Assembly: GCA_019634095.1 (NCBI GenBank)
Contig: JAHQVY010000357.1
Coordinates: forward strand, 1-13,634
Source: Cellvibrionaceae bacterium
GTDB taxonomy: Bacteria; Pseudomonadota; Gammaproteobacteria; Pseudomonadales; Cellvibrionaceae
Length of the DNA stretch: 13,634 nucleotides
Reading direction: 5' to 3'
Of the stretch, positions 1 to 13,634 are shown in pieces. Positions within the stretch are counted from its first letter, which is position 1. Each line of letters begins with the position of its first letter. The notes below the pieces were generated by a model. The model saw nothing but the letters and a program-made list of their open reading frames with translations, was not told where the DNA came from and did not search any database. The position numbers and the translations under genes are program-made.

Positions 1-1
1 A

Positions 2-100
2 AACCAGATTCAAGTGTTGAGTGGTTTGAAAGCCGACGATCGGATTATTGTCTCGGACAGCTCCGCCTATGCCGAGCATGAAACAATTTTAGTTAACTAG
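2..100 (+). CDS. 3' end (partial) of an efflux periplasmic adaptor / membrane-fusion protein (HlyD/MacA family)
   Basis: Frame 2 reads NQIQVLSGLKADDRIIVSDSSAYAEHETILVN, with a TAG stop at 98-100. The ...V.SGLK.GDR+IV... motif is the typical C-terminal beta-barrel end of MFP adaptors. It lies directly upstream of an ABC ATPase and an FtsX permease, which fits a tripartite efflux operon. It is truncated by the window edge. Confidence 0.5.
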   Translation, partial: NQIQVLSGLKADDRIIVSDSSAYAEHETILVN

Positions 101-115
101 TAAAAATTGCTTTGT

Positions 116-145
116 AACTTGGTAAATATTAAAACTTGGTAAATA
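116..145. repeat. Perfect 13-bp direct repeat AACTTGGTAAATA x2, separated by TTAA (17-bp periodicity), in an AT-rich intergenic region
   Basis: Read directly: aacttggtaaata (116-128), ttaa, aacttggtaaata (133-145). It may be a regulator-binding half-site pair or overlapping -35-like boxes (TTGGTA). Confidence 0.6.
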
Positions 146-159
146 AAAAATAATCGCCA

Positions 160-348
160 ATATACCCGTAGCGTTTGATATTTAGGCCTTATGAGCACAG
201 CCCTAAGTGCCCTTGGCGGTGTTGCTCCGCCTTAAAAAGAATGGCTATTCTGCATTGCCCTAATACCTCACACCTCTGTGAGTAACGCCTTGCCAAGAAC
301 CTTAATTGATGCACTCCTACACCTAAATCTCAAACGCTTTGGGTATAT
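160..348 (+). mobile_element. MITE-like non-coding repeat element, copy A (~189 bp) with 8-bp terminal inverted repeats ATATACCC...GGGTATAT
   Basis: About 90% identical to 13275-13468 in the same orientation. The termini are reverse complements (160-167 atataccc; 341-348 gggtatat). It contains conserved hairpins GGCGG-tgttgct-CCGCC (215-231) and CTCACA-cctc-TGTGAG (267-282). It has no ORF and is inserted between the adaptor gene end and the ATPase gene. Confidence 0.6.
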
Positions 349-400
349 CAAACACTAGGGGTATACATTTGAAAATTCTGTTGGAACAGGACATAAATTT

Positions 401-1162
401 ATGGCTAAAACACTGCTAGATCTAAATAATATTTCTAAGTCATTTTTCACTGAGGATATCGAAACCAAAGCGTTGAAAAATATTGACCTGGTGGTAAGCC
501 AAGGTGAGTATGTTTCCCTGACTGGCCCCTCTGGTTGCGGTAAGTCGACATTGTTATCTATCCTCGGCTTGCTCGATGAAGCGAGCGCTGGAGTGTATAA
601 ACTGTGCGATATTGACGTGACAAATTTATCGCGAGATCAACGAGCTGCGGTGCGCAATAGAGAAATTGGTTTTATTTTCCAGTCGTTTAATCTTATCAGT
701 GATTTAACAGTGGAAGAAAATGTGATGTTGCCTCTCACTTACAACAAGGCGCACCAGAATATCGATATGAAAAACCTTGCTAAGGAAATGCTCGCCAAGG
801 TGAATATGGGGCACCGCATCAAGCACTATCCCGCTCAGCTTTCCGGAGGGCAGCAGCAGCGTGTCGCAATTGCGCGCGCGCTGGTCAATCAGCCGTCGTT
901 GATTCTGGCGGATGAACCCACAGGAAACTTAGATAGCGAGAACGCGACGGCTGTACTCGAGATTCTCGACCAGCTTCATCGCGATGGGACAACTATTTGT
1001 ATGGTCACCCATGATTCGCGCTGTGTTGAACGGGTGAATCGTGCGGTTTACATCCTCGACGGTGAAATTTGCCCATCGCCGCCATCGCCGCCATTGTTGC
1101 CAAACACAGGCGCAGCACCCAAGCCGGCAAAGGCTTGCAAACAAGCTGCAACCTTAGATTGA
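401..1162 (+). CDS. ABC transporter ATP-binding protein, MacB/LolD/YbbA-type NBD, with a Pro-rich C-terminal tail
   Basis: Walker A GPSGCGKST, Q-loop, ABC signature LSGGQQQRVAIARAL, Walker B LILADEPTGNLD, H-loop VTHD. A weak AGGA lies 9 nt upstream of the ATG. The last ~28 aa (PSPPSPPLLPNTGAAPKPAKACKQAATLD) are low-complexity and contain a 9-bp tandem duplication. The TGA stop (1160-1162) is 11 nt before the permease start. Confidence 0.92.
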   Translation: MAKTLLDLNNISKSFFTEDIETKALKNIDLVVSQGEYVSLTGPSGCGKSTLLSILGLLDEASAGVYKLCDIDVTNLSRDQRAAVRNREIGFIFQSFNLISDLTVEENVMLPLTYNKAHQNIDMKNLAKEMLAKVNMGHRIKHYPAQLSGGQQQRVAIARALVNQPSLILADEPTGNLDSENATAVLEILDQLHRDGTTICMVTHDSRCVERVNRAVYILDGEICPSPPSPPLLPNTGAAPKPAKACKQAATLD

Positions 1163-1173
1163 GGCGGAGGATA

Positions 1174-3597
1174 ATGATGACGCACTTAATTTTAGATATG
1201 GCTTATTCGCTGCGCTTGTTAAGAAAATCACCCAGCTTTACTGCCTTGTGTGTATTGGTGTTGGCCGGTGGTTTGGCGGTGAGTTTATTTACTTTCGCTT
1301 TTTTGTATACCTTAACTAACAAGCCCCTGCCACTGCCGGATCAAAGTTCGCTGTACCGCGCTTCGCGGGATTGGTATGGCGAAGCCTTTGGTGAAAGCCG
1401 CTATTTGCCCGCCTACGAGGCCGCAGCCATTCGCCAGCAGGCCACGGTATTCAAAGAGCACGGTATCTGGCAAAACAAAACTGTGTACCTGTCTCAAGGT
1501 GAAAATAATTTGGTGGTGTCGGCGGTGCGCAGCACAGCGAATATTTTCGATATCAGTCGCAGCGGGCCATTGCTAGGGCGTTTGTTGCATCCGCGCGACA
1601 GCCAGCCCGACCAAACGCCGGTGGCGGTGATTAGCTATGCCATCTGGCAAAGCCAGTTTGCCGGCAATGACGAGGTGATTGGCAAACAGATTTATATTAA
1701 CGACGTCGCCACAGAAATTGTTGGTGTGATGCCAAAGGGCTACCGTTTTCCGATTTCCCACGATCTTTGGTTGCCCATTTCCCAGCAGCTACTCCACCCA
1801 CTCAGCACTCAGCGCGAAAAAGTGGAGTTGTTTGGCCGTTTAAAACCGGGAGTGTCGCGGGAACAGGCGCAGCAGCAGGTTTTGTCCCTGGCCGAGCAGT
1901 CATTTTCCCAGCGTGCAGAAACCTGGCCAGGCGTGGAGTTGATTCGAGCCAAGGTGGATATTTTTCAGCGTTTTGATGTAAGCACCGAGATGAAAATATT
2001 TTCCTACGCCATGAACATGCTTGCGTTTTTTATTCTGGTTTTGGCGGCAATTAATGTTGGCAATTTATTGTTTGTGCGGGCCATTCAACGCAATAGAGAG
2101 TCGGCCATTCGCATTGCCCTAGGCGCCCCGCAATGGCGCTTGATTAGTCAGTTGATGTGGGAGGGGGTAATAATTACTGTGCTCGGCACAAGCATCGCGG
2201 TGTTTATTTCCAGTGTGCTGCTCCATGCCGTGAATATTTATTTCCGCTCATTAATGAATAACGAACTGGCGTTTTGGTATATCTGGGAAATGGATGTCAC
2301 GGTGTTTAGTGCAGCCCTGGCGTTTGCCGTGGCGACAATTGTCATCGCCTGTTTTTGGCCCGCATTCCGCGCCGCTCGGCAAGATTTTAATAGGGTACTG
2401 CGCGACGGAACCCGCGGCGCCCAAAGCAAACACGCTGGGTTTATGTCGCGCCTTTTAGTCACCCTGCAAATTTCGGCCATTTCCATCATTATGGTGCTCG
2501 GTGCGGTCATCTCCACCAAGGTGCACAATCTTACCGACATGGACCTTGGTTACGATGTGAAAGGAATCAGTTTTTCGATTGTTGAATTGCCCGAGAGCGC
2601 CTACCCCGAAAATACCGACAAATCCTTGTTTTTCGAGCGGCTGCAGCGCGCGCTGTTTAACAGCCAGGCGTTTTCCGGTGCGACGGTGCGCTTTAATCAC
2701 AGCCAATTGCCGGTTGCTGTTGGTGGCGTGGAATATCAGCGCGACGCCGATAAACCCAAGGTACAGGTGTTTAGCATGATTGGTAGCAGCGAATTTATGG
2801 GGCCGACGCTTGTGGCAGGGCGTGAATTAGATAGTCGAGATGGCAGCGGTCGGGCGCCCGCAGTGCTAGTCAGTAGCTCCATGGCCAAGCGTTATTGGCC
2901 CAACGATTCACCCATAGACAAACAAATTGAAGTGAGCTTGCAAGCTAAAGTATTGCGGCTAAATATTGTTGGCGTGGTATCTAACACTACAAATAATCCC
3001 TTCCATAAAAAAGAAAGTTATCACGAAATTTACCTGTCTGGCCTTCAGTTTCCAATGCAGCGGGGCACGGTGTTCTTTGAAAAGACCTCTGCGGGAGTAC
3101 TGGTGGAAGATAATTTTTTTCGCGCCATCAACGCCATCGACAGTAAGCTGGATATTCTCACCATTGAAGACTGGGAGCTGGAAGCTGACGCGATTGGCAA
3201 GATGACGGTGACTTTCCGCGATACCATTGTGATTTGCGGCGTATTTTCACTGATTCTGGCTATGAGCGGTATTTACGGAATCACCGCATTTTCGGTGGAA
3301 AAGCGCTCCCAGGAGGTGGGGGTGAGGCGCGCCCTGGGGGCCACCGACCGTAAAATCATGGGGCTGTTTGTAAGGCAGGGGAGTCGTCAGTTGATTATTG
3401 GTCTGCTGTGTGGGTGCCTGATTTCGGGGCTGATGATGTTTGGCCTCTCCAGCATTATGGCCATTCCCTCTGTGGTTTACCTGGTGATTTACGCGTCGGT
3501 GATAGTCTCTTTGACGTTGATTGTGTTGGCTGCGGTGATTATTCCCGCGCGCCGGGCGGTTAATTTGCTGCCAGCTGTTGCACTGCGTTACGAATAG
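1174..3597 (+). CDS. ABC transporter permease with duplicated FtsX/MacB-type domains (YbbP-like, 807 aa)
   Basis: A GGAGG RBS (1166-1170) precedes ATGATG at 1174. The layout is an N-terminal TM helix, a large periplasmic domain, three TM helices, then a second periplasmic domain and a C-terminal four-helix FtsX bundle, which is the ~800-aa YbbP architecture. The ORF-track start at 1069 is an in-frame upstream extension without an RBS, so 1174 was chosen. Confidence 0.88.
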   Translation: MMTHLILDMAYSLRLLRKSPSFTALCVLVLAGGLAVSLFTFAFLYTLTNKPLPLPDQSSLYRASRDWYGEAFGESRYLPAYEAAAIRQQATVFKEHGIWQNKTVYLSQGENNLVVSAVRSTANIFDISRSGPLLGRLLHPRDSQPDQTPVAVISYAIWQSQFAGNDEVIGKQIYINDVATEIVGVMPKGYRFPISHDLWLPISQQLLHPLSTQREKVELFGRLKPGVSREQAQQQVLSLAEQSFSQRAETWPGVELIRAKVDIFQRFDVSTEMKIFSYAMNMLAFFILVLAAINVGNLLFVRAIQRNRESAIRIALGAPQWRLISQLMWEGVIITVLGTSIAVFISSVLLHAVNIYFRSLMNNELAFWYIWEMDVTVFSAALAFAVATIVIACFWPAFRAARQDFNRVLRDGTRGAQSKHAGFMSRLLVTLQISAISIIMVLGAVISTKVHNLTDMDLGYDVKGISFSIVELPESAYPENTDKSLFFERLQRALFNSQAFSGATVRFNHSQLPVAVGGVEYQRDADKPKVQVFSMIGSSEFMGPTLVAGRELDSRDGSGRAPAVLVSSSMAKRYWPNDSPIDKQIEVSLQAKVLRLNIVGVVSNTTNNPFHKKESYHEIYLSGLQFPMQRGTVFFEKTSAGVLVEDNFFRAINAIDSKLDILTIEDWELEADAIGKMTVTFRDTIVICGVFSLILAMSGIYGITAFSVEKRSQEVGVRRALGATDRKIMGLFVRQGSRQLIIGLLCGCLISGLMMFGLSSIMAIPSVVYLVIYASVIVSLTLIVLAAVIIPARRAVNLLPAVALRYE

Positions 3598-3682
3598 CCT
3601 TGGGGTGTTTCGGCGGCGGCGGGTGGGCCCTGGAATCTCGGCCAATAGGGTTTACTATGTATAAGTTGAGGTTGTTTTTTGA

Positions 3683-3724
3683 TCTATAAAAATTACAGGT
3701 AATATTACCTGTAATTTTTATAGA
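3683..3724. promoter_or_regulatory. 42-bp perfect palindrome TCTATAAAAATTACAGGTAAT|ATTACCTGTAATTTTTATAGA; candidate operator overlapping a promoter, and/or bidirectional terminator hairpin
   Basis: Read directly. Both 21-nt arms are exact reverse complements with no spacer. It ends 33 bp before the ATG of the first gene of the PspA/flotillin block. It contains TATAAA/TTTATA -10-like hexamers, and a possible -35 TTGATC at 3679-3684. The ACAGGTA/TACCTGT stem, flanked by A- and T-runs, could also terminate the upstream permease transcript. Confidence 0.6.
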
Positions 3725-3756
3725 CTGGGGGCACAAACTGGATTACAGTTCTGTGT

Positions 3757-4410
3757 ATGAACAAGAAAACATCCGCACATTATCAGCGAGAGTATCGACG
3801 CCGGTTGCGTGAGCAGGGCTTGGTAAAGAAAGAAGTTTGGATAAACCAAGACCACGCGAAAACCCTGCATCGGCTCGAGTTGCAACTTCGTCAACCCGGC
3901 AGCGAATCGTTGCCTGCTAGCAAAGGCGCCGAGCTGACGCAGGCGGGCCTCCTCGCTACCTGGACCACGCAGAGTCTGTTTGACGCCCTCGCCGCGCAGC
4001 CAGATTTTAGCGCCAATAACACCTTGGAGCTTATCGATGATGCCCAGCCCTCCATACACCTTGATATGAAGCAGTATGGCGACCTGCCGGTTTATTTGGC
4101 GGTGTGTGGCGAGCAAATTATTGTAGAGTCGCTGCTGTGGCCCCTCAGCGAGGTTAAGAACTCGGCCCAATTTAATGAGATGCTTTTAAAAACGCACAAG
4201 TTTATACCGCTTTCCAGCGTCGGTTTGGAAACCTTTGAAAACGGCGCCACTTACTATTATATGTTCGGTGCCCTCAGTGCCGGCTCGTTGCTGGCGAATA
4301 TTATTTTTGAAATTGACTGCCTGGGGAGCAACGTTATTCAAGCCACGCAGGCTTTCTCCGAGTTTTTGAAAAGTGCCATACCGCTCGATACCGATGTGGC
4401 AGCGCCGTGA
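3757..4410 (+). CDS. DUF2170-family protein (E. coli YjfI-like) with a ~80-aa N-terminal basic, ribbon-helix-helix-like extension
   Basis: Residues ~85-217 (…MKQYGDLPVYLAVCGEQIIVESLLWPLS…KFIPLSSVGLETFENGATYYYMFGALSAGSLLANIIFEI…) match the YjfI/DUF2170 pattern as I remember it (…MNDYGDLQINI…MPLSSVGIS…YYIVFGALS…). The N-terminus is KTSAHYQREYRRRLREQG, followed by KEVWINQDHAKTLHRL, which is a beta-strand plus helix of RHH type. It is the first ATG after an in-frame stop. It has no clear SD sequence, which is a weakness. Confidence 0.7.
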   Translation: MNKKTSAHYQREYRRRLREQGLVKKEVWINQDHAKTLHRLELQLRQPGSESLPASKGAELTQAGLLATWTTQSLFDALAAQPDFSANNTLELIDDAQPSIHLDMKQYGDLPVYLAVCGEQIIVESLLWPLSEVKNSAQFNEMLLKTHKFIPLSSVGLETFENGATYYYMFGALSAGSLLANIIFEIDCLGSNVIQATQAFSEFLKSAIPLDTDVAAP

Positions 4411-5117
4411 GTAATTGGGCAAAAGTATTTAGCTTACTCAATGCACACCGGGTGAGTTACGCAGAAAATGTCGAGGAAAACCCGGCCTTTGCGTTGATCA
4501 GCGCCGAGCTTAAGCAATCGCTTAGCCAGTTGAGCACAATGCAACAGGCGTTTAAGGCATTGCAATCGCAGCAGAAATTGGCGCGAGCCAAAGTCAGTCA
4601 ACTGGCCGCAAGTATCGAAGAATACGAAGGGTACGCGGCCAGCGCGCTTAATAAGCAGCAGTCCGAATTAGCGTTAGAAGTGGCGGCGAAAATCGCCGAA
4701 TTCGAAAGCCAACGGAAAACCGAGCAAAACGCCATACAGCAGCGACAAGGCGATTTAAGCTTGCTGCAGCAGAGCATGCCTCTGTGCGAGCAGCATCACA
4801 AACGCTTAAAGCATCAGCTGGACACCCTCAAAGCGGTCGTCAATGTGTTACACGCGCAAGCCACCGTCGCGGTTCGCGAAGGGGGGGAGGTGCCTAAGCA
4901 CCGCACCGCTTTAGATGCCCTAAAAAAAATCCGCGACAAAAATGCGGCCGAGCAGGCCCAGTTGCAAGCGGCGAGCGATTTAGCGGCCGATGTGGATGCG
5001 CAGTCGCTGCGGGAAAAGCTAAAGGCGGCGGGCATTATTGATAGTGGCCACAGCGCCGAAACGGTGCTGCAACGCATAGCGGCGCAAGTGAATGCCGCGA
5101 GTGAACCTGGCAATTAA
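4407..5117 (+). CDS. PspA/IM30-family protein (phage-shock protein A / Vipp1 / ESCRT-III superfamily; YjfJ-like)
   Basis: Its GTG start overlaps the upstream TGA (GTGA), so the two genes are translationally coupled. The N-terminus is NWAKVFSLLNAHRVSYAENVEENPAFALISAELKQSL, which resembles PspA [35 protein letters not shown]. The remainder is a ~230-aa Q/A/E/L-rich coiled coil typical of the family. Confidence 0.75.
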   Translation: MSNWAKVFSLLNAHRVSYAENVEENPAFALISAELKQSLSQLSTMQQAFKALQSQQKLARAKVSQLAASIEEYEGYAASALNKQQSELALEVAAKIAEFESQRKTEQNAIQQRQGDLSLLQQSMPLCEQHHKRLKHQLDTLKAVVNVLHAQATVAVREGGEVPKHRTALDALKKIRDKNAAEQAQLQAASDLAADVDAQSLREKLKAAGIIDSGHSAETVLQRIAAQVNAASEPGN

Positions 5118-5158
5118 AGCCGATAATTAAAACCGATAATTAAAGCCGGCAATTAAAC
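5107..5158. repeat. Four imperfect tandem copies of a 12-13-nt unit C(C/G)G(A/G)(T/C)AATTAAA(G/A)C spanning the PspA-like stop codon and the intergenic region
   Basis: Read directly: ctggcaattaaagc / cgataattaaaac / cgataattaaagc / cggcaattaaac. The first unit encodes the C-terminal PGN residues and the stop codon. Confidence 0.55.
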
Positions 5159-5175
5159 TTAAGGGAGTCAAACTT

Positions 5176-5820
5176 ATGGAAACATTTTTAGCAACCATTA
5201 CTGCGTTTCCAACTGTAATTTTTACCAGTTTATTTATTTTTTGTATTTTTTATTGGCTAATGGCACTTATCGGTTTGGTGGATTTAGACGTTCCCGGTGC
5301 GGAGGTGCCTGATGCCGCTGGTGATAGTATGAGTAGCCTCAGCGCTTTTACCGGGTTAATGGTAAAGCTCGGCCTGCAAGGGGTGCCGTTTCCGCTAACG
5401 CTGTCGCTTATTACTGTAATGGGGTGGGCCTGTTGTTATTTTTCATGTTTATTGTTGCTGCCATTTATTGCTACGGGGCTTACTAAATATTTATTGGGTA
5501 TTCCGGTTTTTTTGCTGTCATTTTTTGCCGCTATTTATATTACTTCAAAAATCATTAATCCCTTGCGGCCAATGTTTCTCTCTGCGGAGCAAAGAGCCGA
5601 ACACACGCTGATTGGTAAAACTGCCACGGTGCGCAGCTCGCGCGTTGACAGCGAATTTGGCGAGGCTAATGTAAAAAGCGCCGGTGCCGAACTCATTATT
5701 AACGTGCGCGCTTGCCAGGAGGCGGTTTTTGAAAAAGGCGATCGAGTGGTTTTGCTGGAACATGTGAAGCCGGGTAATTTTTACAAAGTTATTTCTGAAG
5801 AAGAATTTAACCTAAACTAA
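5176..5820 (+). CDS. YqiJ-like inner-membrane protein with a C-terminal NfeD-type OB-fold domain (flotillin partner)
   Basis: RBS AAGGGAG with 8-nt spacing. The protein has ~4 N-terminal TM helices, then LIGKTATVRSS…GEANVKSAGAELIINVRAC…FEKGDRVVLLEHVKPGNFYKV, an NfeD/YqiJ-type beta-barrel tail. It sits immediately upstream of an SPFH/flotillin gene, the canonical NfeD-SPFH operon arrangement. Confidence 0.7.
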   Translation: METFLATITAFPTVIFTSLFIFCIFYWLMALIGLVDLDVPGAEVPDAAGDSMSSLSAFTGLMVKLGLQGVPFPLTLSLITVMGWACCYFSCLLLLPFIATGLTKYLLGIPVFLLSFFAAIYITSKIINPLRPMFLSAEQRAEHTLIGKTATVRSSRVDSEFGEANVKSAGAELIINVRACQEAVFEKGDRVVLLEHVKPGNFYKVISEEEFNLN

Positions 5821-5832
5821 TTTGTTGGATTG

Positions 5833-5861
5833 TTGCGAGGATGTTCGCAGTAGATTCTAAT
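5833..5861 (+). promoter_or_regulatory. Candidate sigma70-type promoter TTGCGA-N17-TCTAAT upstream of the flotillin gene
   Basis: Hexamers read directly: -35 at 5833-5838 and -10 at 5856-5861, about 44 bp upstream of the GTG start. It lies inside the segment that recurs inverted at 13486-13525. It is weak by itself and was not scored. Confidence 0.3.
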
Positions 5862-5879
5862 GGTTAATTTAGGTTTAAA
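5840..5879 (-). repeat. Inverted copy of the segment at 13486-13525 (15/15 + 18/25 matching positions)
   Basis: The reverse complement of 5840-5879 is ttaaacctaaattaa+ccattagaatctactgcgaacatcc. The segment at 13486-13525 is ttaaacctaaattaa+tcagttggatctactgcggacgccc. Confidence 0.45.
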
Positions 5880-5905
5880 CACGCTATAGGGTAAGGAGAA
5901 TTGCT

Positions 5906-7876
5906 GTGAACCAAGTTGATTATATTGCTTATTTAACCGGGATTGCTGTAGTAATTGGTGCGCTTTTTGTGATTGCATTGGTTATTATTTCGATATTTAA
6001 AGCGTTTTATGTGAAGGTAGAGCAGGGTGTTGCTTTGATAAAAAATGATACCGGTAATACACCCAAGGTGGTGTTTACCGGCACCTGGATTATTCCGGTG
6101 ATTCATAAAAAAGAGTTGATGCGTATTTCCCTGATTACCATGGAAGTGGACCGTCGCGGCAAAGACGGTTTGATTTGTGCCGACAATATGCGAGCCGATA
6201 TTACCGTGGCTTTTTACTTGCGGGTGAATGAAACCCCCGAGGATGTGCTGCAAGTCGCCAAATCTTTGGGTGCCTCGCGGGCCTCGGATAAAGATGCAGT
6301 GCACGAGTTGTTCAATGCTAAATTTTCTGAAGCCCTAAAAACAGTGGGCAAGCAAATAGAATTTGTAAAGCTATTTGAAGATAGGCAAACCTTCCGTGAA
6401 AAAATTAAACGCGTGATTGGCGATGATCTCAACGGTTATATTCTCGAAGATGTGGCGATTGATTACCTGGAGCAAACACCCAAATCGTCCCTCGATCCCA
6501 GTAATATTCTCGATTCCCAAGGCATTCGCAAAATTACCGAACTTACCGCAACCCAGAATGTGCGCACCAACGAGTTAGAGCGCGATGAAGAGTTGGCGAT
6601 TAAAAAGAAGAATGTCGAAACGACTGAAGCCAGGCTGGAGTTAGAGCGGCAACAAGCCGATGCCGAGGCGCGTCAGCAACGGGAGATTCTGAGTATCCAA
6701 GCCAGAGAGGAAGCCGAAACCAAGCGCATTCAAGAGGAAGAGCGCAAAAAATCTGAGGAAACCGCCATTGCGGTTGAGCAAGAATTGTCGGTGCAGCGAG
6801 AAAATCAACAGCGAGAAGTGGAAGTGGCGCAGCAAAATCGACAGCGCGCAGTGGCCATTGAAGTAGAGCGGGTGAGCAAAGCGCGCGATTTAGAAATTGT
6901 CGCCCGGGAGCGCGAGGTGGAATTGCAGCGAATTGGCGCAGAAAAAGATATCGAAAAAGAGCGCAAAGAAATTGCCAATGTTATTCGCGAGCGGGTAACC
7001 GTGGATAAATCTGTGGCGGTGGAAGAGGAAAAAATTAAAGAAGTGCGCGAAATCTCTGAAGCCGATCGCGCCAAACAAGCCGCAGTATTGCAAGCCGAGG
7101 CCGATGCCGAAACCGAAAAGGTGAAGCAGGTGCAGCAGGCTGAAGCAGAGGGCTTAGCCGCGAAATACCGCGCTGAAGAAGTGGTAACGATGGCTCAAGC
7201 TAAGTTGGAAGCGGCGGCAAAAGATGCCGATGCCAAGAAAAAACTCGCCGAAGGGGTGGAGGCGGAAGAGGCGGCCATGGGAATCGCCGAAGCCAAGGTC
7301 AGAGAAGCCCAGGCGATGGCCTTAGAAAAAGAAGGTTTGGCGGAAGCCAAAGTGATTACTTCCAAAGGCGAAGCCAATGCCACAGCCTTGGAAAAAGCCG
7401 GCACTGCCGAAGCCAATGTGCTGGCATTTAAAGGTGAGGCGCAAGCCAAGGCGGTGCGTGACACCGGGTTATCGGAAGCCGACGTAAGCCGGGAAAAACT
7501 CCGCGCGGAAGCGGAAGGGCTAGTCGAAAAATTCGAGGCGATGAGCAGCTTGAGCGGCGATGCACGCGACCACGAAGAATTTCGTATGTCTTTGGAAACG
7601 GCCTTGGAAGAGGCCTTGGCTTCCATAGAAGCGGGCAAAGTGGTTGCCAAGGAAAATGCCGAAGTACTGGCTACCGCTTTGCAAAATTCCAATATCGATA
7701 TTGTTGGTGGGGAAGAGCATTTCTTTAACAACTTCGCTAAATCTTTGTCGATTGGCAAAGCCATAGATGGTTTGGCAGCAAAGAGCGGCACTGTGGAAGC
7801 CTTGCTGCATAAATTTATGTCGATGCAAAAACCTTCAGAAAAAAGCAATGGTGCGGCTGTTGATCCCCAGCACTAG
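5906..7876 (+). CDS. SPFH/band-7 flotillin-like protein (YqiK-like), 656 aa
   Basis: GTG start with an AAGGAG RBS (5893-5898). It has an N-terminal TM helix and an SPFH domain (KVVFTGTWIIPVIHKKELMRISLITMEV…DNMRADITVAFYLRVNE…). This is followed by ~350 aa of E/A/K/R/Q-rich coiled coil with flotillin-type EA repeats (AEAKV…AEANV…AEADV). The antisense Ala/Ser-rich ORF 7195-7848 is its compositional shadow. Confidence 0.88.
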   Translation: MNQVDYIAYLTGIAVVIGALFVIALVIISIFKAFYVKVEQGVALIKNDTGNTPKVVFTGTWIIPVIHKKELMRISLITMEVDRRGKDGLICADNMRADITVAFYLRVNETPEDVLQVAKSLGASRASDKDAVHELFNAKFSEALKTVGKQIEFVKLFEDRQTFREKIKRVIGDDLNGYILEDVAIDYLEQTPKSSLDPSNILDSQGIRKITELTATQNVRTNELERDEELAIKKKNVETTEARLELERQQADAEARQQREILSIQAREEAETKRIQEEERKKSEETAIAVEQELSVQRENQQREVEVAQQNRQRAVAIEVERVSKARDLEIVAREREVELQRIGAEKDIEKERKEIANVIRERVTVDKSVAVEEEKIKEVREISEADRAKQAAVLQAEADAETEKVKQVQQAEAEGLAAKYRAEEVVTMAQAKLEAAAKDADAKKKLAEGVEAEEAAMGIAEAKVREAQAMALEKEGLAEAKVITSKGEANATALEKAGTAEANVLAFKGEAQAKAVRDTGLSEADVSREKLRAEAEGLVEKFEAMSSLSGDARDHEEFRMSLETALEEALASIEAGKVVAKENAEVLATALQNSNIDIVGGEEHFFNNFAKSLSIGKAIDGLAAKSGTVEALLHKFMSMQKPSEKSNGAAVDPQH

Positions 7877-7952
7877 GCATACCTCAGATAGCCACTGTGT
7901 TACCGGCTGATAAAACCTTAGGGTTCAGTGATTAGGAGAAAAAGGAATACGT

Positions 7953-10900
7953 ATGGCTGATACCGCTTCTGAACCACCCAGCTCCATAGACAGCGCTGTT
8001 GCTGAAGGTGGCGCCTACGATGTTTTACGCAGGCGCCTAAACGAGCAGGGCCAAGCATTAAATGAACAAGTTAAGAACATTAATAGCGCCAGACTCGCCG
8101 AGTTTGGCCAGTCTGATCTTAAAATAGCCACCCGCACCCGAGTGCGCACCGCAAATAACTGCGTTGCGCGGGATATTGTGCAAGTGGGTGAGCTGTTGCT
8201 GTTTTCTTACAACGTATTTATTGGCTTAAAAAAAGCCACGCAAATTAACGATGTGTTTGCGGTATTTAAATTGCAGCACAGTGGCGATCAATACGAGTTA
8301 CTGAGTGTCGATATCGATACCAGTTTTCTCAACGATAGTCGCTTTCAGAAAGATTTTAACGAGCTGTACCACTACTATAAAAAAACCCACCTCAAAGAAA
8401 CCCGCGTGGTTAACGGGCTCTTGCTGATGGGCTTTCAAATTAGTGAGCGCGAGGAAGATATCCGCGTATTTCGCTGGTCGCTATCTGCCGATGGCACTGT
8501 GCTTAAGTACATCGATAATCGTGGCGAGCGCGACTTAGTATTGCCGCCAAGCTTTGATTTTGACTGGCAAGAAGCCACCCGAGAAGACACGGTGCAAGGG
8601 CGTTATCCCCATGTGAATATTCTCGATACGCTGTTCGTCGAAACCATTAACGGCGATTTGACCATAAAAATAGAGGACAATACCGAAGATGGTCAGGGCA
8701 TTTACCGAGAGGCGGTGGAGGATGGCAACCAGAGTATTGATGACGCCGCATTTTGCTACGCCCGCTTGGGCGGCTTAATTTTACTTAAGGTGCTGCCTTA
8801 CAAAGAAAAACACTATCGCCATTTTGTTTACAATACCCTCACCGAACAGGTGCTGCGTCTGGATGCGATTGCCAGCTCCTGCGTGCAACTGCCGGAAGAT
8901 CACGGCATTATTTTTCCGGGCGGTTATTTTTTGCAAGATGGTGAGCACAAAGACTTTGCCGGCGATGTTGCCGGTATGCGCTTTCAACGCAAAATTCGCT
9001 CTCCCAATGGCGAGGATTTTCTCTATGTTTTTTATGAGCCGATTAGCGGAACCTCGGTACTGCTAGCTTATAATTTAATAGAAAAACGCCTGCAAAACCC
9101 CTTGTACTGTCACGGTTACGCCCTGGGAGACGATGGCAAAATTGTGATGTTTGTCGCCGAAGAGGAAGCGACGCGGGTGCACCCGATGCAAATTTGGCAA
9201 ACTCCCTTTGTCGGCGATGACTACGCCAGTCAACAGCCGAAGAGCCAGTCCTTTTTTAGCCGTATTGGCAACGCTTCCCTGGTTCGGGGCATATCCGATG
9301 TGTTTAGTATTTGCCGATCGGTAAATAATCAGTCGGTAACATTAAAAGTGTATGAAGAGTTGGCTGGGCAAAGCAAAAAAATCTTTGATAACCATTATTG
9401 GATTGATAGCGATGAATGCCACGGGATTGCCAATTTAATTCGCAGTATTGCGGAAACCGCCGAGTTAACCATCGACGAGTTTCAAAAAGTTCAGAGTATT
9501 CAGCAGCAGTCAAACCAAGCTCTGGAAAAGGCCAAACAACAGCAGCAAGCACTGTTGTTAGAGATACGCAACAGCGCCTGGCAACAAGCCTTAGACTATG
9601 TTAACGCCCTGGGTGACTTAAAAAAGTTACGCGGCCATTTGGCCAGTATTCGCCAGTTGCGCTATATCGATGTGGCGCAAATTGCGCTGCTAGAAAGCGA
9701 ACTGTTGCAAAGCCAAGAGGATTTAAATACGCGTACCGCCGAGTTTCTCAGCCAAGATAAGGCCTTTGAGCCCTACCAAGAAACCATTGCTAATTTGGAT
9801 AAGGCGGTGGAAAAAGCCGACAGCAACATAAGCCTGTCGCCGTTGTTGGAACAAATGGATCAGCTCGCTGAGGGGCTGGATATGTTAACCGATATGATGT
9901 CGACATTGCAGGTGGCGGATGTCAACGTGCGCACCCAGATTATCGATGCCACCACCTCGGTGTATGCCAAGCTTAACCAGAGTCGCGCCCTGGCAAAACA
10001 CAAGCAAAAGAACTTGGGCTCGAAAGAGGCCACGGCGCAATTCGCCGCGCAATTTAAGTTGTTTTCGCAAAGTGTCACCAATGCCTTGGGTTTGGCGGCA
10101 ACGCCCGAAGAGTGCGACAAACAGATGTCGCGCCTGCTGGTGCAGCTTGAAGATTTGGAAAGTCAATTTGGTGAATTTGAACAGTTTCTCGGCGATATTA
10201 TTAGTAAACGCGAAGAAGTGTACGAAAGTTTTGAAGCGCATAAGCAGCAATTACTGGATGCACAACAACGTAAAGCCCAGAATATTTTCGATGCCGCTGA
10301 ACGGGCACTGGCGAGCATTGAACGCCGAGTGAATAAGTTTAAAGACATGGATGCGCTCAACACCTATCTGGGTTCCGATGCCCTGGTATTAAAAATTAAC
10401 GACTTTGTGGAACAGCTTAGGCAACTCAATGCCTCGGTGCAGGCCGAAGATGTGAGCAGTCGTTTAAAAGGGATTAAAGATCAGGGCTTGCGCCTGCTGC
10501 GCGATAAAGCCGAGATCTACGAAGGCGAGGGCAATGTGATTAAGCTGGGCCCGCGGCATAAATTTAGCGTAAATACCCAAAGCTTAGATTTAACCATTAT
10601 TCCACGGCAGCAGGATCTTTACCTACATTTAACGGGCACCGACTTTTTTGAGACTATCAACGATTCCCCCTTAAGTCAGTTAAGCGCGTATTGGGACGTT
10701 GCCCACGAAAGTGAAAGTCCATTTTTTTGCCGTGCAGAGTTTTTGGCGGCCTCGGTTATGCAGCAGGCGCAAACTGCGCCCCAGCAACCCTTAATGGACC
10801 TGCTTAAATCGGAAAACGCCTTGCTGGAGCGGGTGCGAGATTACGCGGCGCCGCGTTACAAAGAAGGTTATACAAAGGGCATACACGATCACGACGCCGC

Positions 10901-13259
10901 AAAAATTCTCAGCCAGCTGATCCCCGCCCTGGCGCAGGCTGGGCATTTAAAGTACGACCCGCTATGTCGGGGCTTGGCCCAGGTTTTTTGGGCAAATATC
11001 GAAAAGATTGCCTCGCAACTGGCGAGTTTGCGACTCAGCTACAGTACCTGGCCGGAACGGGCACAATCGGCGGCAAGGCTGGCGAATTTATTGTCCAGTT
11101 TGGAGGCGAAACAGCAGTTGGCCACAGAAATTGAAGTCGCGCTTACTGAATTTGTTAAACATCACCCAATTGTTGCCACGCCTCTGGTGTTAAAACGCAG
11201 TGCCGCTTACTTGGTGGATGAACTGGGCAGCGAAACTATCCGTTTTGTGTGCAGCAAACATGGAATGGAACTCGCCGAAGCGCTGAAGCGCACCTTAGAC
11301 CAAGACAGCTGGCGCCATTTTCAAGTGGCCTTAGAGCGCATGTTAGGCTGGCCGGCGGAACGCTGGCAGCTGAGTGAAAGTTGGTTTAAAGCCTTAGTTG
11401 AGAATAAGTCGCTGGCTCACCTACAACACTATATTCCCGAAGCGGTGGCAATTGTTAACACCGAAAACCGCTTAGAGCGCGAACTGTCCCAGGCGGAATT
11501 GGAGCTGCACATCGACGGTTTACTCAGCGAGCACTCGCGTATTGAAAACCGCTGCTTGGCTTTGTCTATCGACGATTTTCTTACCCGCTATTCAGACCAT
11601 TGCGGCGAATTTATTCCCGAATATCATCGCTACCAAGCACTGCGCAAACAGACGATTCAAGAAAAGCGCGAACAATTGCGTTTAGAAGAGCTGAAACCGC
11701 GCCCGCTGAGCTCGTTTGTACGCAACCGTTTAATTAATGAAAGCTACCTGCCGATTATTGGCGATAATTTAGCGAAACAAATGGGCACCATTGGCGATAA
11801 CAAGCGCAGCGATTTAATGGGCTTGTTAATGATGATATCGCCGCCGGGTTACGGGAAAACCACTTTGATGGAATATGTGGCCGACCGCTTGGGTTTGATT
11901 TTTATGAAAATCAACTGCCCCAGCCTGGGGCATGATGTGCTGTCGCTCGACCCCAGCCAAGCGCCCAACGCGACGGCGCAACAAGAGTTAAAAAAGCTTA
12001 ATCTGGCGCTGGAAATGGGCAATAACGTAATGTTGTACCTCGATGATATACAGCATACCGACCCAGAATTTCTGCAAAAATTTATCTCTTTGTGTGATGG
12101 CACGCGGCGTATTGAGGGAGTGTGGCAAGGCCAATCGCGCACCTATGATATGCGCGGTAAAAAGTTTTGTGTGGTGATGGCGGGTAACCCCTACACTGAA
12201 TCTGGCGAGCTGTTTAAGGTACCCGATATGTTAGCCAACCGCGCCGACATTTATAATTTGGGGGATATTTTAGGGGGGATGGATGAGCAATTCGCCCTGA
12301 GCTATATCGAAAATAGTTTAACCTCTAACCCGGTGTTGGCGCCGCTGGCCACTCGCGATATGCAAGACACGTATTTATTAATTGCTATGGCCGAGGGCAA
12401 AGAGGTGGCCAGCTCAGATTTAAAACATCAATACAGTGCCGCGGAAGTTAAAGAGATTTGCGATGTGCTGAAAAAACTATTTGTGATTCGCGATATTGTG
12501 CTAAAAATTAATCAGCAGTATATCGAGTCTGCCGCCCAAGATGAGCAGAATCGGGTTGAACCGCCGTTTAAGCTCCAGGGCAGCTACCGCAATATGAATA
12601 AAATGGCAGAGAAGGTAGCGGCGGTGCTGAACGCGGCGGAATTGCAGCAGCTGATTGACGATCATTATCGCGGTGAATCGCAATTGCTGACCCAGGGTTC
12701 TGAAGAAAACCTCCTTAAGTTGGCCGAATTGCGCGGCACTCTTAGCCATGCGCAACAACAACGCTGGCAGGACATTAAACAGCGCTTTGTGCGCAACCAA
12801 AAACTGGGGGGTAAAAATAGCGATGCTGCAAGCCAAGTGGTGGCGCAGCTGGGGGACATTGCCGGTGTTTTAACGGCGTTACAGCACAATATGCAGGCGG
12901 GTGTGGAAAACGCTTTGCATACACCACAGCCCGCCGCGAAAAGCGATACCGACAGCGTTATTCTCGGCGCTTTAGACAAAATTCAAGGCTCTATTAGCGC
13001 ATCGTTGGCGAAGGTGCAAGTGGTGAATCAACCGGTGCCGGGTATGGATAAAGTGCTGCGCGTATTGGCGAACACCCTTGAGCAAAGTATTTTTCCGCTG
13101 ATGAAAAACATGGATAAAAAGTTTGAAATAGATTTGAGTACTCACAATAAAATAAGCGATCTGTTTCAACAGCTTAAAAATTTAGAAATGCAAATAAAAA
13201 TGGAAAACGCAGAGAGTACGGTGAGTGTGAGAGAAAACGTGGTGAAGAATAAACCTTAA
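7953..13259 (+). CDS. Giant (1768 aa) multidomain protein with a C-terminal-third AAA+ ATPase module; uncharacterised family
   Basis: A single uninterrupted ORF, with an AGGAG/AAGGAA RBS region upstream of the ATG. AAA+ motifs: Walker A SPPGYGKTTL (aa ~1296-1305, nt ~11838-11867), Walker B VMLYLDDIQH (aa ~1360-1367), and sensor-1-like VVMAGNP (aa ~1407-1413). The N-terminal ~450 aa are mixed alpha/beta. Residues ~500-850 are Q/L/E-rich coiled coil. Residues ~850-1290 are helical. About 350 aa follow the ATPase. There is no sigma54-activator GAFTGA motif and no N-terminal P-loop. Confidence 0.85.
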   Translation: MADTASEPPSSIDSAVAEGGAYDVLRRRLNEQGQALNEQVKNINSARLAEFGQSDLKIATRTRVRTANNCVARDIVQVGELLLFSYNVFIGLKKATQINDVFAVFKLQHSGDQYELLSVDIDTSFLNDSRFQKDFNELYHYYKKTHLKETRVVNGLLLMGFQISEREEDIRVFRWSLSADGTVLKYIDNRGERDLVLPPSFDFDWQEATREDTVQGRYPHVNILDTLFVETINGDLTIKIEDNTEDGQGIYREAVEDGNQSIDDAAFCYARLGGLILLKVLPYKEKHYRHFVYNTLTEQVLRLDAIASSCVQLPEDHGIIFPGGYFLQDGEHKDFAGDVAGMRFQRKIRSPNGEDFLYVFYEPISGTSVLLAYNLIEKRLQNPLYCHGYALGDDGKIVMFVAEEEATRVHPMQIWQTPFVGDDYASQQPKSQSFFSRIGNASLVRGISDVFSICRSVNNQSVTLKVYEELAGQSKKIFDNHYWIDSDECHGIANLIRSIAETAELTIDEFQKVQSIQQQSNQALEKAKQQQQALLLEIRNSAWQQALDYVNALGDLKKLRGHLASIRQLRYIDVAQIALLESELLQSQEDLNTRTAEFLSQDKAFEPYQETIANLDKAVEKADSNISLSPLLEQMDQLAEGLDMLTDMMSTLQVADVNVRTQIIDATTSVYAKLNQSRALAKHKQKNLGSKEATAQFAAQFKLFSQSVTNALGLAATPEECDKQMSRLLVQLEDLESQFGEFEQFLGDIISKREEVYESFEAHKQQLLDAQQRKAQNIFDAAERALASIERRVNKFKDMDALNTYLGSDALVLKINDFVEQLRQLNASVQAEDVSSRLKGIKDQGLRLLRDKAEIYEGEGNVIKLGPRHKFSVNTQSLDLTIIPRQQDLYLHLTGTDFFETINDSPLSQLSAYWDVAHESESPFFCRAEFLAASVMQQAQTAPQQPLMDLLKSENALLERVRDYAAPRYKEGYTKGIHDHDAAKILSQLIPALAQAGHLKYDPLCRGLAQVFWANIEKIASQLASLRLSYSTWPERAQSAARLANLLSSLEAKQQLATEIEVALTEFVKHHPIVATPLVLKRSAAYLVDELGSETIRFVCSKHGMELAEALKRTLDQDSWRHFQVALERMLGWPAERWQLSESWFKALVENKSLAHLQHYIPEAVAIVNTENRLERELSQAELELHIDGLLSEHSRIENRCLALSIDDFLTRYSDHCGEFIPEYHRYQALRKQTIQEKREQLRLEELKPRPLSSFVRNRLINESYLPIIGDNLAKQMGTIGDNKRSDLMGLLMMISPPGYGKTTLMEYVADRLGLIFMKINCPSLGHDVLSLDPSQAPNATAQQELKKLNLALEMGNNVMLYLDDIQHTDPEFLQKFISLCDGTRRIEGVWQGQSRTYDMRGKKFCVVMAGNPYTESGELFKVPDMLANRADIYNLGDILGGMDEQFALSYIENSLTSNPVLAPLATRDMQDTYLLIAMAEGKEVASSDLKHQYSAAEVKEICDVLKKLFVIRDIVLKINQQYIESAAQDEQNRVEPPFKLQGSYRNMNKMAEKVAAVLNAAELQQLIDDHYRGESQLLTQGSEENLLKLAELRGTLSHAQQQRWQDIKQRFVRNQKLGGKNSDAASQVVAQLGDIAGVLTALQHNMQAGVENALHTPQPAAKSDTDSVILGALDKIQGSISASLAKVQVVNQPVPGMDKVLRVLANTLEQSIFPLMKNMDKKFEIDLSTHNKISDLFQQLKNLEMQIKMENAESTVSVRENVVKNKP

Positions 13260-13274
13260 GGTGAAGCGCACTTA

Positions 13275-13468
13275 ATATATACCCAAAACACTTGTGATTT
13301 AGGTCTCATGAGCACGACCCTAAGTGCCCTTGGCGGTGTTGCTCCGCCTTAAATAGAATGGCTATTCTGCGTTGCCCTATTACCTCACATCCCTGTGAGT
13401 ACCGCCTTGCCAAGAACAAAAATTGGCGCACGCCTAACACCTAAATCTCAAACGCTTTGGGTATATAT
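13275..13468 (+). mobile_element. MITE-like non-coding repeat element, copy B (~194 bp) with perfect 10-bp terminal inverted repeats ATATATACCC...GGGTATATAT
   Basis: About 90% identical to 160-348. The termini 13275-13284 and 13459-13468 are exact reverse complements. The GGCGG-tgttgct-CCGCC hairpin is conserved (13332-13348). In the second hairpin, CTCACA-tccc-TGTGAG (13384-13399), the stem is preserved but the loop differs from copy A. Confidence 0.6.
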
Positions 13469-13485
13469 CCGCTGGCGGTGCAGGC

Positions 13486-13525
13486 TTAAACCTAAATTAA
13501 TCAGTTGGATCTACTGCGGACGCCC
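13486..13525 (+). repeat. Partner of the inverted repeat at 5840-5879
   Basis: See feature 5840-5879. It lies just downstream of MITE copy B, presumably in the upstream region of the next gene, which is outside the window. Confidence 0.45.
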
Positions 13526-13634
13526 AATGAATTGAAATTAAAGCGTTTTTTCAGTTTTGCGGCTGCACCCGTAGAGTGACTACGAATTTGCCTCAAAACT
13601 TAAAAAATTCACTCTAATTTCAGCCCCTTGAACG

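Follow-up and report, generated by a model that had tools for sequence, protein, structure and literature searches.

The window analyzed here is a 13,634-nucleotide (nt) stretch of a metagenome-assembled Cellvibrionaceae genome (contig JAHQVY010000357.1, positions 1 to 13,634). It contains a 42-bp palindrome at 3683-3724, immediately upstream of genes in the same order as the bac operon of Pseudomonas aeruginosa, a membrane-stress (bacA/PspA-like) operon. We think that this palindrome is probably an autoregulatory operator of the bacA-bacE operon, bound by BacA, the protein encoded by the first gene (rough probability, 0.65). It lies upstream of the predicted -35 element of bacA and overlaps it by 4 bp. 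We infer the sign of regulation, the transcription start site (TSS), and the stoichiometry in the window organism.

The palindrome contains two abutting 12-bp boxes

The palindrome has two 21-nt arms, TCTATAAAAATTACAGGTAAT on the left (3683-3703) and ATTACCTGTAATTTTTATAGA on the right (3704-3724), which are 100% complementary and separated by 0 nt. The original prediction, made from the sequence of the window, had described it as perfect with exact arms, and direct sequence comparison confirmed this. That prediction also considered a chance origin unlikely, which was borne out. The longest perfect arm in 300 first-order Markov simulations of the window was 6 to 12 nt, and the analytic expectation for an arm of at least 21 nt is approximately 3e-9 per window. 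The distances that it gave are correct as well: the palindrome ends 33 nt from the A of the bacA ATG (3757) and begins 86 nt after the stop of a permease gene (3597). An inverted-repeat search found no second long inverted repeat of this kind anywhere in the 13.6-kb window. A search for the core of the palindrome, ACAGGTAATATTACCTGT, with up to 3 mismatches matched only one place in the window.

The overall symmetry was therefore described correctly, but its inner structure had gone unnoticed. The interior consists of two abutting 12-bp subpalindromes, bordered by A5 and T5 tracts and then by TCTAT and ATAGA. Each is a version of a sequence that we refer to as the bac box. Relative to the predicted TSS, the palindrome spans approximately -74 to -33, and the boxes cover -65 to -42.

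3683-3724, no strand: whole palindrome, a pair of abutting bac boxes between symmetric A/T-rich outer arms (repeat search, simulation)
3692-3703, no strand: distal bac box ATTACAGGTAAT, one central mismatch to ATYACATGTRAT, centered at approximately -59.5 from the predicted TSS
3704-3715, no strand: proximal bac box ATTACCTGTAAT, one central mismatch to ATYACATGTRAT, centered at approximately -47.5

The bac box is conserved upstream of bacA

We fetched 80 genomic loci encoding BacA homologues for comparison, and box statistics were obtained from 81 loci. In nearly all of the fetched loci, a 12-bp palindromic box, ATTACATGTAAT, is present two or three times immediately upstream of bacA. The Pseudomonas version is often ATCACATGTGAT. 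We defined the box by the degenerate consensus ATYACATGTRAT with at most one mismatch. There were 154 boxes in the 200-nt regions upstream of 81 bacA genes (16.2 kb), but only 1 in the remaining 658 kb of these loci. Their starts cluster at -28/-29, -50/-51, and -72 to -75 relative to the ATG, with a modal spacing of 22 bp. The half-site logo is (A)T-Y-A-C-A with mildly A-rich flanks, its last three bases are essentially invariant, and the center is CATG in 153 of the 156 boxes found elsewhere.

Both window boxes match the consensus with one mismatch each. They lie within approximately 80 nt of a bacA gene encoding the N-terminal domain described below, at -65 and -53 from the ATG. The proximal one is the counterpart of the near-universal "-50" box of other loci. 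The window departs from the common arrangement, in which boxes are spaced 20 to 26 bp apart and one lies between -35 and -10. Its spacing is 12 bp, and only two other loci, L081 (12 bp) and L060 (14 bp), are comparable.

Locus L081 is the closest relative, encoding a BacA with 89% amino acid identity, and it has ATTACAGGTAAT-ATTACATGTAAT at the equivalent position. Its distal box is identical to that of the window, including the same G, and its proximal box is the consensus. L081 retains the 24-bp two-box core, the TAGACT -35 element, the 17-nt spacer, a -10 element, and the 7-nt gap to the ATG in surroundings that have diverged. It does not keep the outer 9-bp arms, the A5/T5 tracts, or the C at 3709. 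Therefore, the perfect 42-bp symmetry is specific to the window sequence, and by this comparison the shared functional unit is the box pair. The outer arms, the 12-bp spacing, and the CAGG/CCTG box centers are lineage-specific.

The genes on either side indicate where the boxes belong. The bacB, bacC, and bacD genes follow bacA in 79 to 83 of 83 other loci, whereas the upstream permease gene of the window adjoins bacA in none of the 83. In P. aeruginosa, the gene upstream of bacA is divergent. Because bacB to bacD stay with bacA and the permease gene does not, we assign the boxes, on these sequence comparisons, to bacA rather than to the upstream gene. The conservation of the boxes with bacA supports the earlier proposal that the palindrome is a functional cis element of the downstream module.

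Metagenome and viral sequences were also scanned, with the pattern ATTACMKGTAAT-N0-14-ATTACMKGTAAT. This pattern was too permissive, because it admitted CCGG centers, coding repeats, and N3/N5 pairs from gut bacteria. Among the matches listed, 9 of 135 were bacA loci, and there was no further copy of the exact arrangement in the window. Many human-gut contigs of approximately 0.44 G+C (L091, L106, L108, L114, L118, L122, L128-L130, and others) contain ATTACATGTAAT-N5-ATTACATGTAAT or a pair with an N3 gap. These pairs have near-identical spacers and no bacA nearby. They are a recurrent, unrelated use of the 12-mer, perhaps the site of another regulator or a repeat.

Box sequence also varies with BacA sequence. 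Half-site position 3 is C in 60% of boxes at loci where BacA has L12/Q15 (34 loci, Pseudomonas type) and in 15 to 20% where it has E12. This association of position 3 (T or C) with residue 12 (E or L) could be a direct readout. The covariation is real but confounded by phylogeny and genomic G+C, and we did not use it as evidence.

A conserved promoter predicts a leaderless bacA transcript

The canonical order upstream of bacA is a box (-50 to -39), TTGAC(A), a second box (-28 to -17), TAnnnT, 5 to 7 nt, and (C)ATG. Of 81 loci, 75 have a TTGA-type -35 element with a TAnnnT -10 element, and the spacer between them is 17 nt in 67. At bacA loci the -10 element ends 5 to 7 nt before the ATG, and the base at -1 is always a pyrimidine. 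A Shine-Dalgarno (SD)-like tetramer occurs between -20 and -4 in only 14 of 81 loci. Because the -10 element ends so close to the ATG, bacA transcription is predicted from this geometry to start on the A of the ATG, producing a leaderless mRNA.

The window has a sigma70-type pair in the same position: TAGACT, 17 nt, TACAGT, 7 nt, and ATG. The corresponding elements are TAGACT and TAAAGT in L081 and TTGACA and TACCTT in L060.

3721-3726, + strand: predicted -35 element TAGACT, from conserved geometry; it opens with the final four bases of the palindrome
3744-3749, + strand: predicted -10 element TACAGT, 17-nt spacer from -35, 7 nt before the ATG
3757-3759, + strand: bacA start codon and predicted TSS, leaderless (geometry of 75 of 81 loci and the PA14 TSS; inferred for the window)

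Published data from P. aeruginosa PA14 agree with this geometry. Table S3 of Wurtzel et al. 2012 lists transcription unit 841 (PA14_16140-16150) with a TSS at 1374599; the start annotated at that time lay 177 nt downstream, at 1374776. Two points, the end of bacB and an internal ATG at 4178 that served as the old start, were used to anchor PA14 coordinates to the P. aeruginosa locus in our set (L083). The TSS then maps to L083 position 4001, the A of the ATG of a 206-amino-acid open reading frame. The "177-nt 5' untranslated region" of that study is the coding sequence of the BacA N-terminal domain. Wallart et al. proposed a sigma54 promoter for P. aeruginosa bacA. By eye, there was no GG-N10-GC or TGGCAC-N5-TTGC-like element at the right distance from 3757 in the window or from 4001 in L083. 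Neither the TSS nor the sequence supports the sigma54 promoter.

These results change how the palindrome relates to bacA expression. It had been suggested to overlap a promoter through its TATAAA/TTTATA hexamers, but the conserved geometry places -35 at 3721-3726 and -10 at 3744-3749. It had also been suggested that a hairpin might affect translation initiation. However, the palindrome would be outside the bacA mRNA, because the predicted TSS is at the ATG. The missing SD sequence that accompanied this suggestion would be explained by leaderless translation, not by a regulatory hairpin. An alternative promoter, TTGATC (3679)-N15-TAATAT, with TAATAT inside the palindrome, was rejected because L081 does not conserve TTGATC and because the two hexamers are separated by 15 nt.

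We also ran a consensus promoter and terminator scan of 3300-4100, requiring 9 of 12 promoter matches, a loop of no more than 8 nt, and maximal stem extension. It reported no promoter or terminator at the palindrome, but these thresholds are too strict for a weak promoter and for the inner stem, so we do not count this as negative evidence. The window promoter scores 4+4 of 12, below the scan threshold.

Loci with no box in the promoter spacer (the window at 3727-3743, L081, L060, and the three Hahella loci L007, L012, and L056) share a GC.CAAAC-like motif there.

BacA has a conserved N-terminal domain with repressor-like relatives

The first gene (3757-4410, + strand) encodes a 217-amino-acid BacA-like protein of the DUF2170/YjfI family, which NCBI currently names "biofilm formation regulator BacA." It scores 153.5 bits against Pfam PF09938 (DUF2170/YjfI), well above the gathering threshold of 27. 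The NCBIfam BacA equivalog model NF050185 covers residues 1-207 with 273.9 bits (E=6.6e-82), below its cutoff of 300. The protein is 53 to 57% identical to most of the aligned homologues. It is a full-length but divergent homologue that is best filed as BacA-like.

3757-3891, + strand: N-terminal domain of BacA, amino acids 1-45, basic, predicted helix-strand-helix, putative DNA-binding domain (alignment, profiles, model)
3958-4368, + strand: DUF2170/CesT-like chaperone domain of BacA, amino acids 68-204 (Pfam, E=3.7e-45; PDB 8q8o, E=1.5e-33)

Residues 1-45, in which 18 positions are invariant, are better conserved than any other part of BacA, and they are followed by a variable linker and then DUF2170. 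The N-terminal consensus is SSAHYQREYRRRLREQGLVKKEVWILPENAK.L...EKQLR. In the window protein, INQDH replaces the usual ILPEN just after the strand, a difference that may be connected with the unusual centers and abutting arrangement of the window boxes. The crystal structure of P. aeruginosa BacA (8q8o) contains the DUF2170 part only and aligns to window residues 68-206.

When 1.84 billion representative proteins were searched with a profile of the N-terminal domain, only 158 matched, and many of these are free-standing proteins of 45 to 90 amino acids. Among these standalone relatives, 26 of 64 match NCBIfam NF041430, "plasmid repression protein F" (best E=3.8e-7), and 21 of 64 match the Pfam MazE-like antitoxin family PF11455 (best E=3.9e-5). 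The window domain itself matches PF11455 weakly (E=0.036). With the standalone relatives as a bridge, these profile matches indicate that the N-terminal domain is remotely related to RSF1010 protein F and MazE-like antitoxins. The domain had been labeled ribbon-helix-helix (RHH). However, its predicted order is helix-strand-helix rather than the canonical strand-helix-helix, and searches with the window domain by Pfam, PDB sequence, and Foldseek gave no match to an RHH family or structure. The label is therefore unproven.

Two free-standing 46-amino-acid homologues (L221, 1501-1641; L222, 26-166) have small unannotated genes arrayed around them, as is typical of the early regions of phages or plasmids, and this fits the link to repressor F and MazE-like proteins. 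These contexts were uninformative about operators. A tblastn search of plasmids with one standalone relative (P0370) returned no match.

The linker has a feature of its own. In 73 of 78 bacA homologues, it encodes a strong SD sequence (AAGGAG/GGAGG) 6 to 9 nt before a conserved in-frame ATG. The P. aeruginosa example, ggagaaggaggaagacATG (L083, 4158-4180), is at M60, where the old annotation and the crystal construct both begin. The window (3900-3960) and L081 are without this internal Met (KGAELT; ...gagCTGacg). This pattern suggests that a bacA gene may have two products, a leaderless full-length protein and an SD-driven form containing DUF2170 only.

BacA is the most likely binder

We consider BacA most likely to be the binder and autorepression most likely to be the outcome because of the conservation and the relatives of its N-terminal domain described above, a P. 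aeruginosa mutant phenotype, and an E. coli gene. In a PA14 bacA::Tn mutant, BacB-F were up 6- to 13-fold, and BacA has been proposed as a negative regulator of the bac operon in P. aeruginosa (PMC10948618). The E. coli DUF2170 gene yjfI, which does not encode the N-terminal domain, has no bac box upstream in the one genome examined. One of the three roles in the original prediction was an operator bound by a dimeric repressor, the product of the first gene. It is the best supported of the three, by box conservation, the DNA-binding-like domain, and derepression in PA14, with BacA as the probable binder. The palindrome would be a lineage-specific member of an ordinary class, operators of autoregulated operons. 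Its family, which combines the bac box, a DNA-binding BacA, and a leaderless bacA mRNA, appears to be undescribed.

Several points weigh against this conclusion. The match of the window domain to NF041430 is subthreshold (16.7 bits against a cutoff of 100; E=0.0058; profile positions 18-65 of 68), and hhalign of the domain with RSF1010 protein F gave E=0.0017 with a probability of 16%. The AlphaFold2 monomer model (helix 6-19, extended 20-30, helix 31-45) has a predicted local distance difference test score of 70. Foldseek against the PDB and a PDB profile sequence search found no relative of the N-terminal domain. The PA14 "delta-bacA" strain is a MAR2xT7 transposon insertion, so upregulation of downstream genes could be transposon readout, and the yjfI negative control is a single genome. 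In the window, both boxes are altered at the near-invariant CATG center, and no lineage but this one has the 12-bp spacing. The interval between -35 and -10 contains no box, which makes repression less obviously steric, and box centers at approximately -47.5 and -59.5 would suit an activator too.

Alternative explanations

The same operator might be used for activation, by BacA or another binder, in the window lineage. This would account for both boxes lying upstream of -35 with none overlapping the core promoter, and for the weak -35 and -10 elements, which are typical of activator-dependent promoters. L060, with its boxes 14 bp apart, and the three Hahella loci also have no spacer box and have both boxes upstream of -35. 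Even so, we consider activation unlikely. The only functional data come from P. aeruginosa and indicate negative control, the related RSF1010 F and MazE-like proteins are repressors, and the palindrome overlaps -35 by 4 bp. It is also rather doubtful that the boxes are bound by an unlinked, conserved gammaproteobacterial transcription factor and that the BacA N-terminal domain binds something else, such as protein or RNA. The link from BacA to DNA is indirect, the fold of the domain is a prediction of moderate confidence, and double ATTACATGTAAT boxes occur in unrelated metagenomic contexts. However, within the sampled 8.6-kb loci of 81 genomes the box is found only before bacA, and BacA is the only always-adjacent protein that resembles a DNA binder. 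The relatives of its domain are autorepressors, and the E. coli yjfI locus is without both domain and box.

The two other roles in the original prediction fare less well. A bidirectional intrinsic terminator that insulates the bac operon from the ABC transporter genes would use an inner stem, ATTACAGGTA/TACCTGTAAT (10 bp, 3 G-C pairs, 4-nt loop), with A5 before it and T5 after it. For an RNA hairpin of its base composition it is very stable, it lies 86 nt past the permease stop, and the consensus scan would miss the inner stem because it extends stems to full length. However, the stem is A/U-rich, and U5 follows the inner 10-bp stem only. The T tract, the A tract, the outer arms, and perfect pairing are absent from L081. 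The boxes stay with bacA at 83 loci that have different upstream genes and no permease gene there. Therefore, we do not class the palindrome as a rho-independent terminator, and termination as its main, conserved role is very unlikely. A separate hairpin with U6 at 3634-3680 can serve the permease transcript and makes such a role unnecessary. A secondary insulating effect in the window organism is possible. Least probable of all is that the 42-bp symmetry reflects a supercoiling-dependent cruciform, nucleated at the A/T-only center TAATATTA and modulating the promoter or operator, or neutral quasipalindrome correction by template switching. The perfect arms, zero spacer, A/T center, and calculated DNA hairpin free energy (-15.8 kcal/mol; z = -11) would suit these readings, as would the symmetry of outer 9-bp arms that are not conserved. 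However, 42 bp is short for stable cruciform extrusion in vivo. No other locus has an uninterrupted long palindrome, and the unit shared across genomes is the 12-bp box, which leaves the cruciform unsupported as a conserved function.

Proposed mechanism

If BacA binds the palindrome as an operator, each box would take one dimer of its basic helix-strand-helix N-terminal domains. The DUF2170 domain of BacA is dimeric in the crystal. These CesT-like dimerization domains might bridge neighboring box-bound dimers through the flexible 20- to 30-residue linker, and we propose that box spacings of 12 to 26 bp are tolerated because of this bridging. Box occupancy would then set transcription of bacA and of the downstream genes for PspA-like, flotillin-like, and AAA+ proteins. 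The default reading is that repression would come from blocking access of sigma region 4, or of the C-terminal domain of the RNA polymerase alpha subunit, to the -35/UP region. In most genomes the complex would bracket -35 and fill the promoter spacer, whereas in the window it would cover -65 to -42. Feedback from the PspA-like BacB through a BacA-BacB contact is speculative.

A more elaborate version is possible, and we offer it tentatively as well short of an even bet. BacA might be a one-polypeptide feedback sensor for a PspA-type membrane-stress system, with a repressor-F/MazE-like domain, a linker, and a CesT-like BacB-binding domain, so that free BacB sets occupancy. This would parallel the action of PspA on PspF, with neither sigma54 nor an AAA+ activator involved. 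Most lineages would make two forms, a leaderless full-length repressor at a low level and an SD-driven short form of DUF2170 only that could titrate the long form or heterodimerize with it. The window lineage would have lost the internal start and compacted the operator into a single perfect palindrome.

Operon and neighboring genes

Downstream of bacA, gene order in the window is that of the P. aeruginosa bac operon. The GTG start of bacB overlaps the bacA stop by 4 nt, both in the window (4407-4410) and in L081 (740-743). The chaperone-like and PspA-like proteins may therefore be translationally coupled.

4407-5117, + strand: bacB, PspA/IM30 family, GTG start overlapping the bacA stop by 4 nt
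5176-5820, + strand: bacC homologue, no Pfam match, downstream in 80 of 83 loci
5906-7876, + strand: bacD homologue, no Pfam match, downstream in 79 of 83 loci
7953-13259, + strand: bacE homologue, 1,768 amino acids, DUF3686 + DUF7902 + AAA+ (Pfam, gene order)
3634-3680, + strand: candidate intrinsic terminator of the upstream ABC transporter genes, 9-bp outer stem (3634-3673) with an internal stem-loop, then G and U6 (RNA fold)

The candidate terminator escaped the consensus scan because its loop exceeds the limit. Upstream of it, an ABC ATPase gene occupies 401-1162, and a permease gene of the MacB/FtsX type ends at 3597. The listed permease open reading frame (TTG at 1069) overlaps that of the ATPase by 94 nt (1069-1162). 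Translation of the permease probably begins downstream of the listed start, close to the stop of the ATPase gene.

Comparison with known systems

The closest known system is the P. aeruginosa bac operon (bacABCDEF, PA3732-PA3728; Mace 2008; Wallart 2024, PMC10948618). Its order is shared by the window: a DUF2170 protein, a PspA-like protein, two uncharacterized proteins, and a large DUF3686-AAA+ protein. In P. aeruginosa, two bac boxes at -51 and -29 surround a TTGAAA/TAGTGT promoter, whereas in the window the boxes abut (12 versus 22 bp), both lie upstream of -35, and their centers are CAGG/CCTG. Published work on P. aeruginosa used the short, 146-amino-acid BacA annotation, and structure 8q8o is without the N-terminal domain. 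Wallart 2024 (PMC10948618) proposed a sigma54 promoter and regulation through protein-protein contacts. The text of that paper does not contain "DNA-binding," "ribbon," "helix," or "palindrom," and it describes no DNA-binding domain or operator.

RSF1010 (IncQ) F/UrfF resembles the BacA domain in being small and basic, with a basic helix, G-hydrophobic, a short strand ending in W, and a helix. The NF041430 model and the BacA model both match standalone relatives of the N-terminal BacA domain. Protein F also autoregulates its own operon; passages in PMC2200642 and PMC6201506, citing Maeser 1990, describe it as an autorepressor of promoter P4. In the sequence of an IncQ1 plasmid, on which our description of the operator is based, the P4 region has two GTAC-centered partial palindromes 24 bp apart, around -35 and -10. 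These sites are approximately two helical turns apart and overlap the core promoter, but their GTAC centers differ from the CATG of the bac box. Protein F is a free 68-amino-acid protein, whereas the BacA domain is fused to a chaperone-like domain. MazE-like antitoxins (PF11455) and RHH autorepressors (Arc, CopG, and MetJ) are likewise small dimeric binders that repress their own operons. They often bind as a dimer of dimers to adjacent or abutting short palindromes, akin to the window boxes. Unlike MazE systems, the window encodes no toxin partner, and unlike canonical RHH proteins, the BacA domain has the predicted order helix-strand-helix.

Other resemblances are more general. The phage shock protein (Psp) response (PspA-PspF) also has a PspA family protein in an operon under negative feedback. 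However, neither the mapped nor the predicted bacA TSS has a sigma54 -24/-12 element, and no gene for a PspF-type AAA+ activator lies beside the operator. In the ExsC/ExsE/ExsD/ExsA partner switch, a CesT-like chaperone domain is also implicated in transcription control. A BacA-BacB interaction has been predicted (PMC13092808) and also reported as unpublished data. Unlike in Psp and Exs, the putative DNA-binding and chaperone-like modules would be in one BacA polypeptide. Repetitive extragenic palindromes and bacterial interspersed mosaic elements are similar in being extragenic palindromes between convergent or codirectional units. Unlike these, the palindrome has one copy in the window, is A/T-rich rather than G/C-rich, and is built from a box tied to one locus in the sampled loci of other genomes.

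Implications

Operons of the bac/YjfI-PspA type are widespread, and the P. aeruginosa versions affect biofilm formation, rhamnolipids, and virulence. The published bac model, with sigma54, protein contacts only, and a truncated structure, misses the conserved N-terminal domain, the operator box, and the leaderless transcript. The short start in older PA14 and PAO1 annotations removes the likely DNA-binding domain. If it is true that BacA binds these boxes, then the regulatory logic of the family would be directly testable, and the box would be a handle on the regulon. The family of bac box, N-terminal domain, and leaderless transcript also corrects the current picture of a studied P. aeruginosa system.

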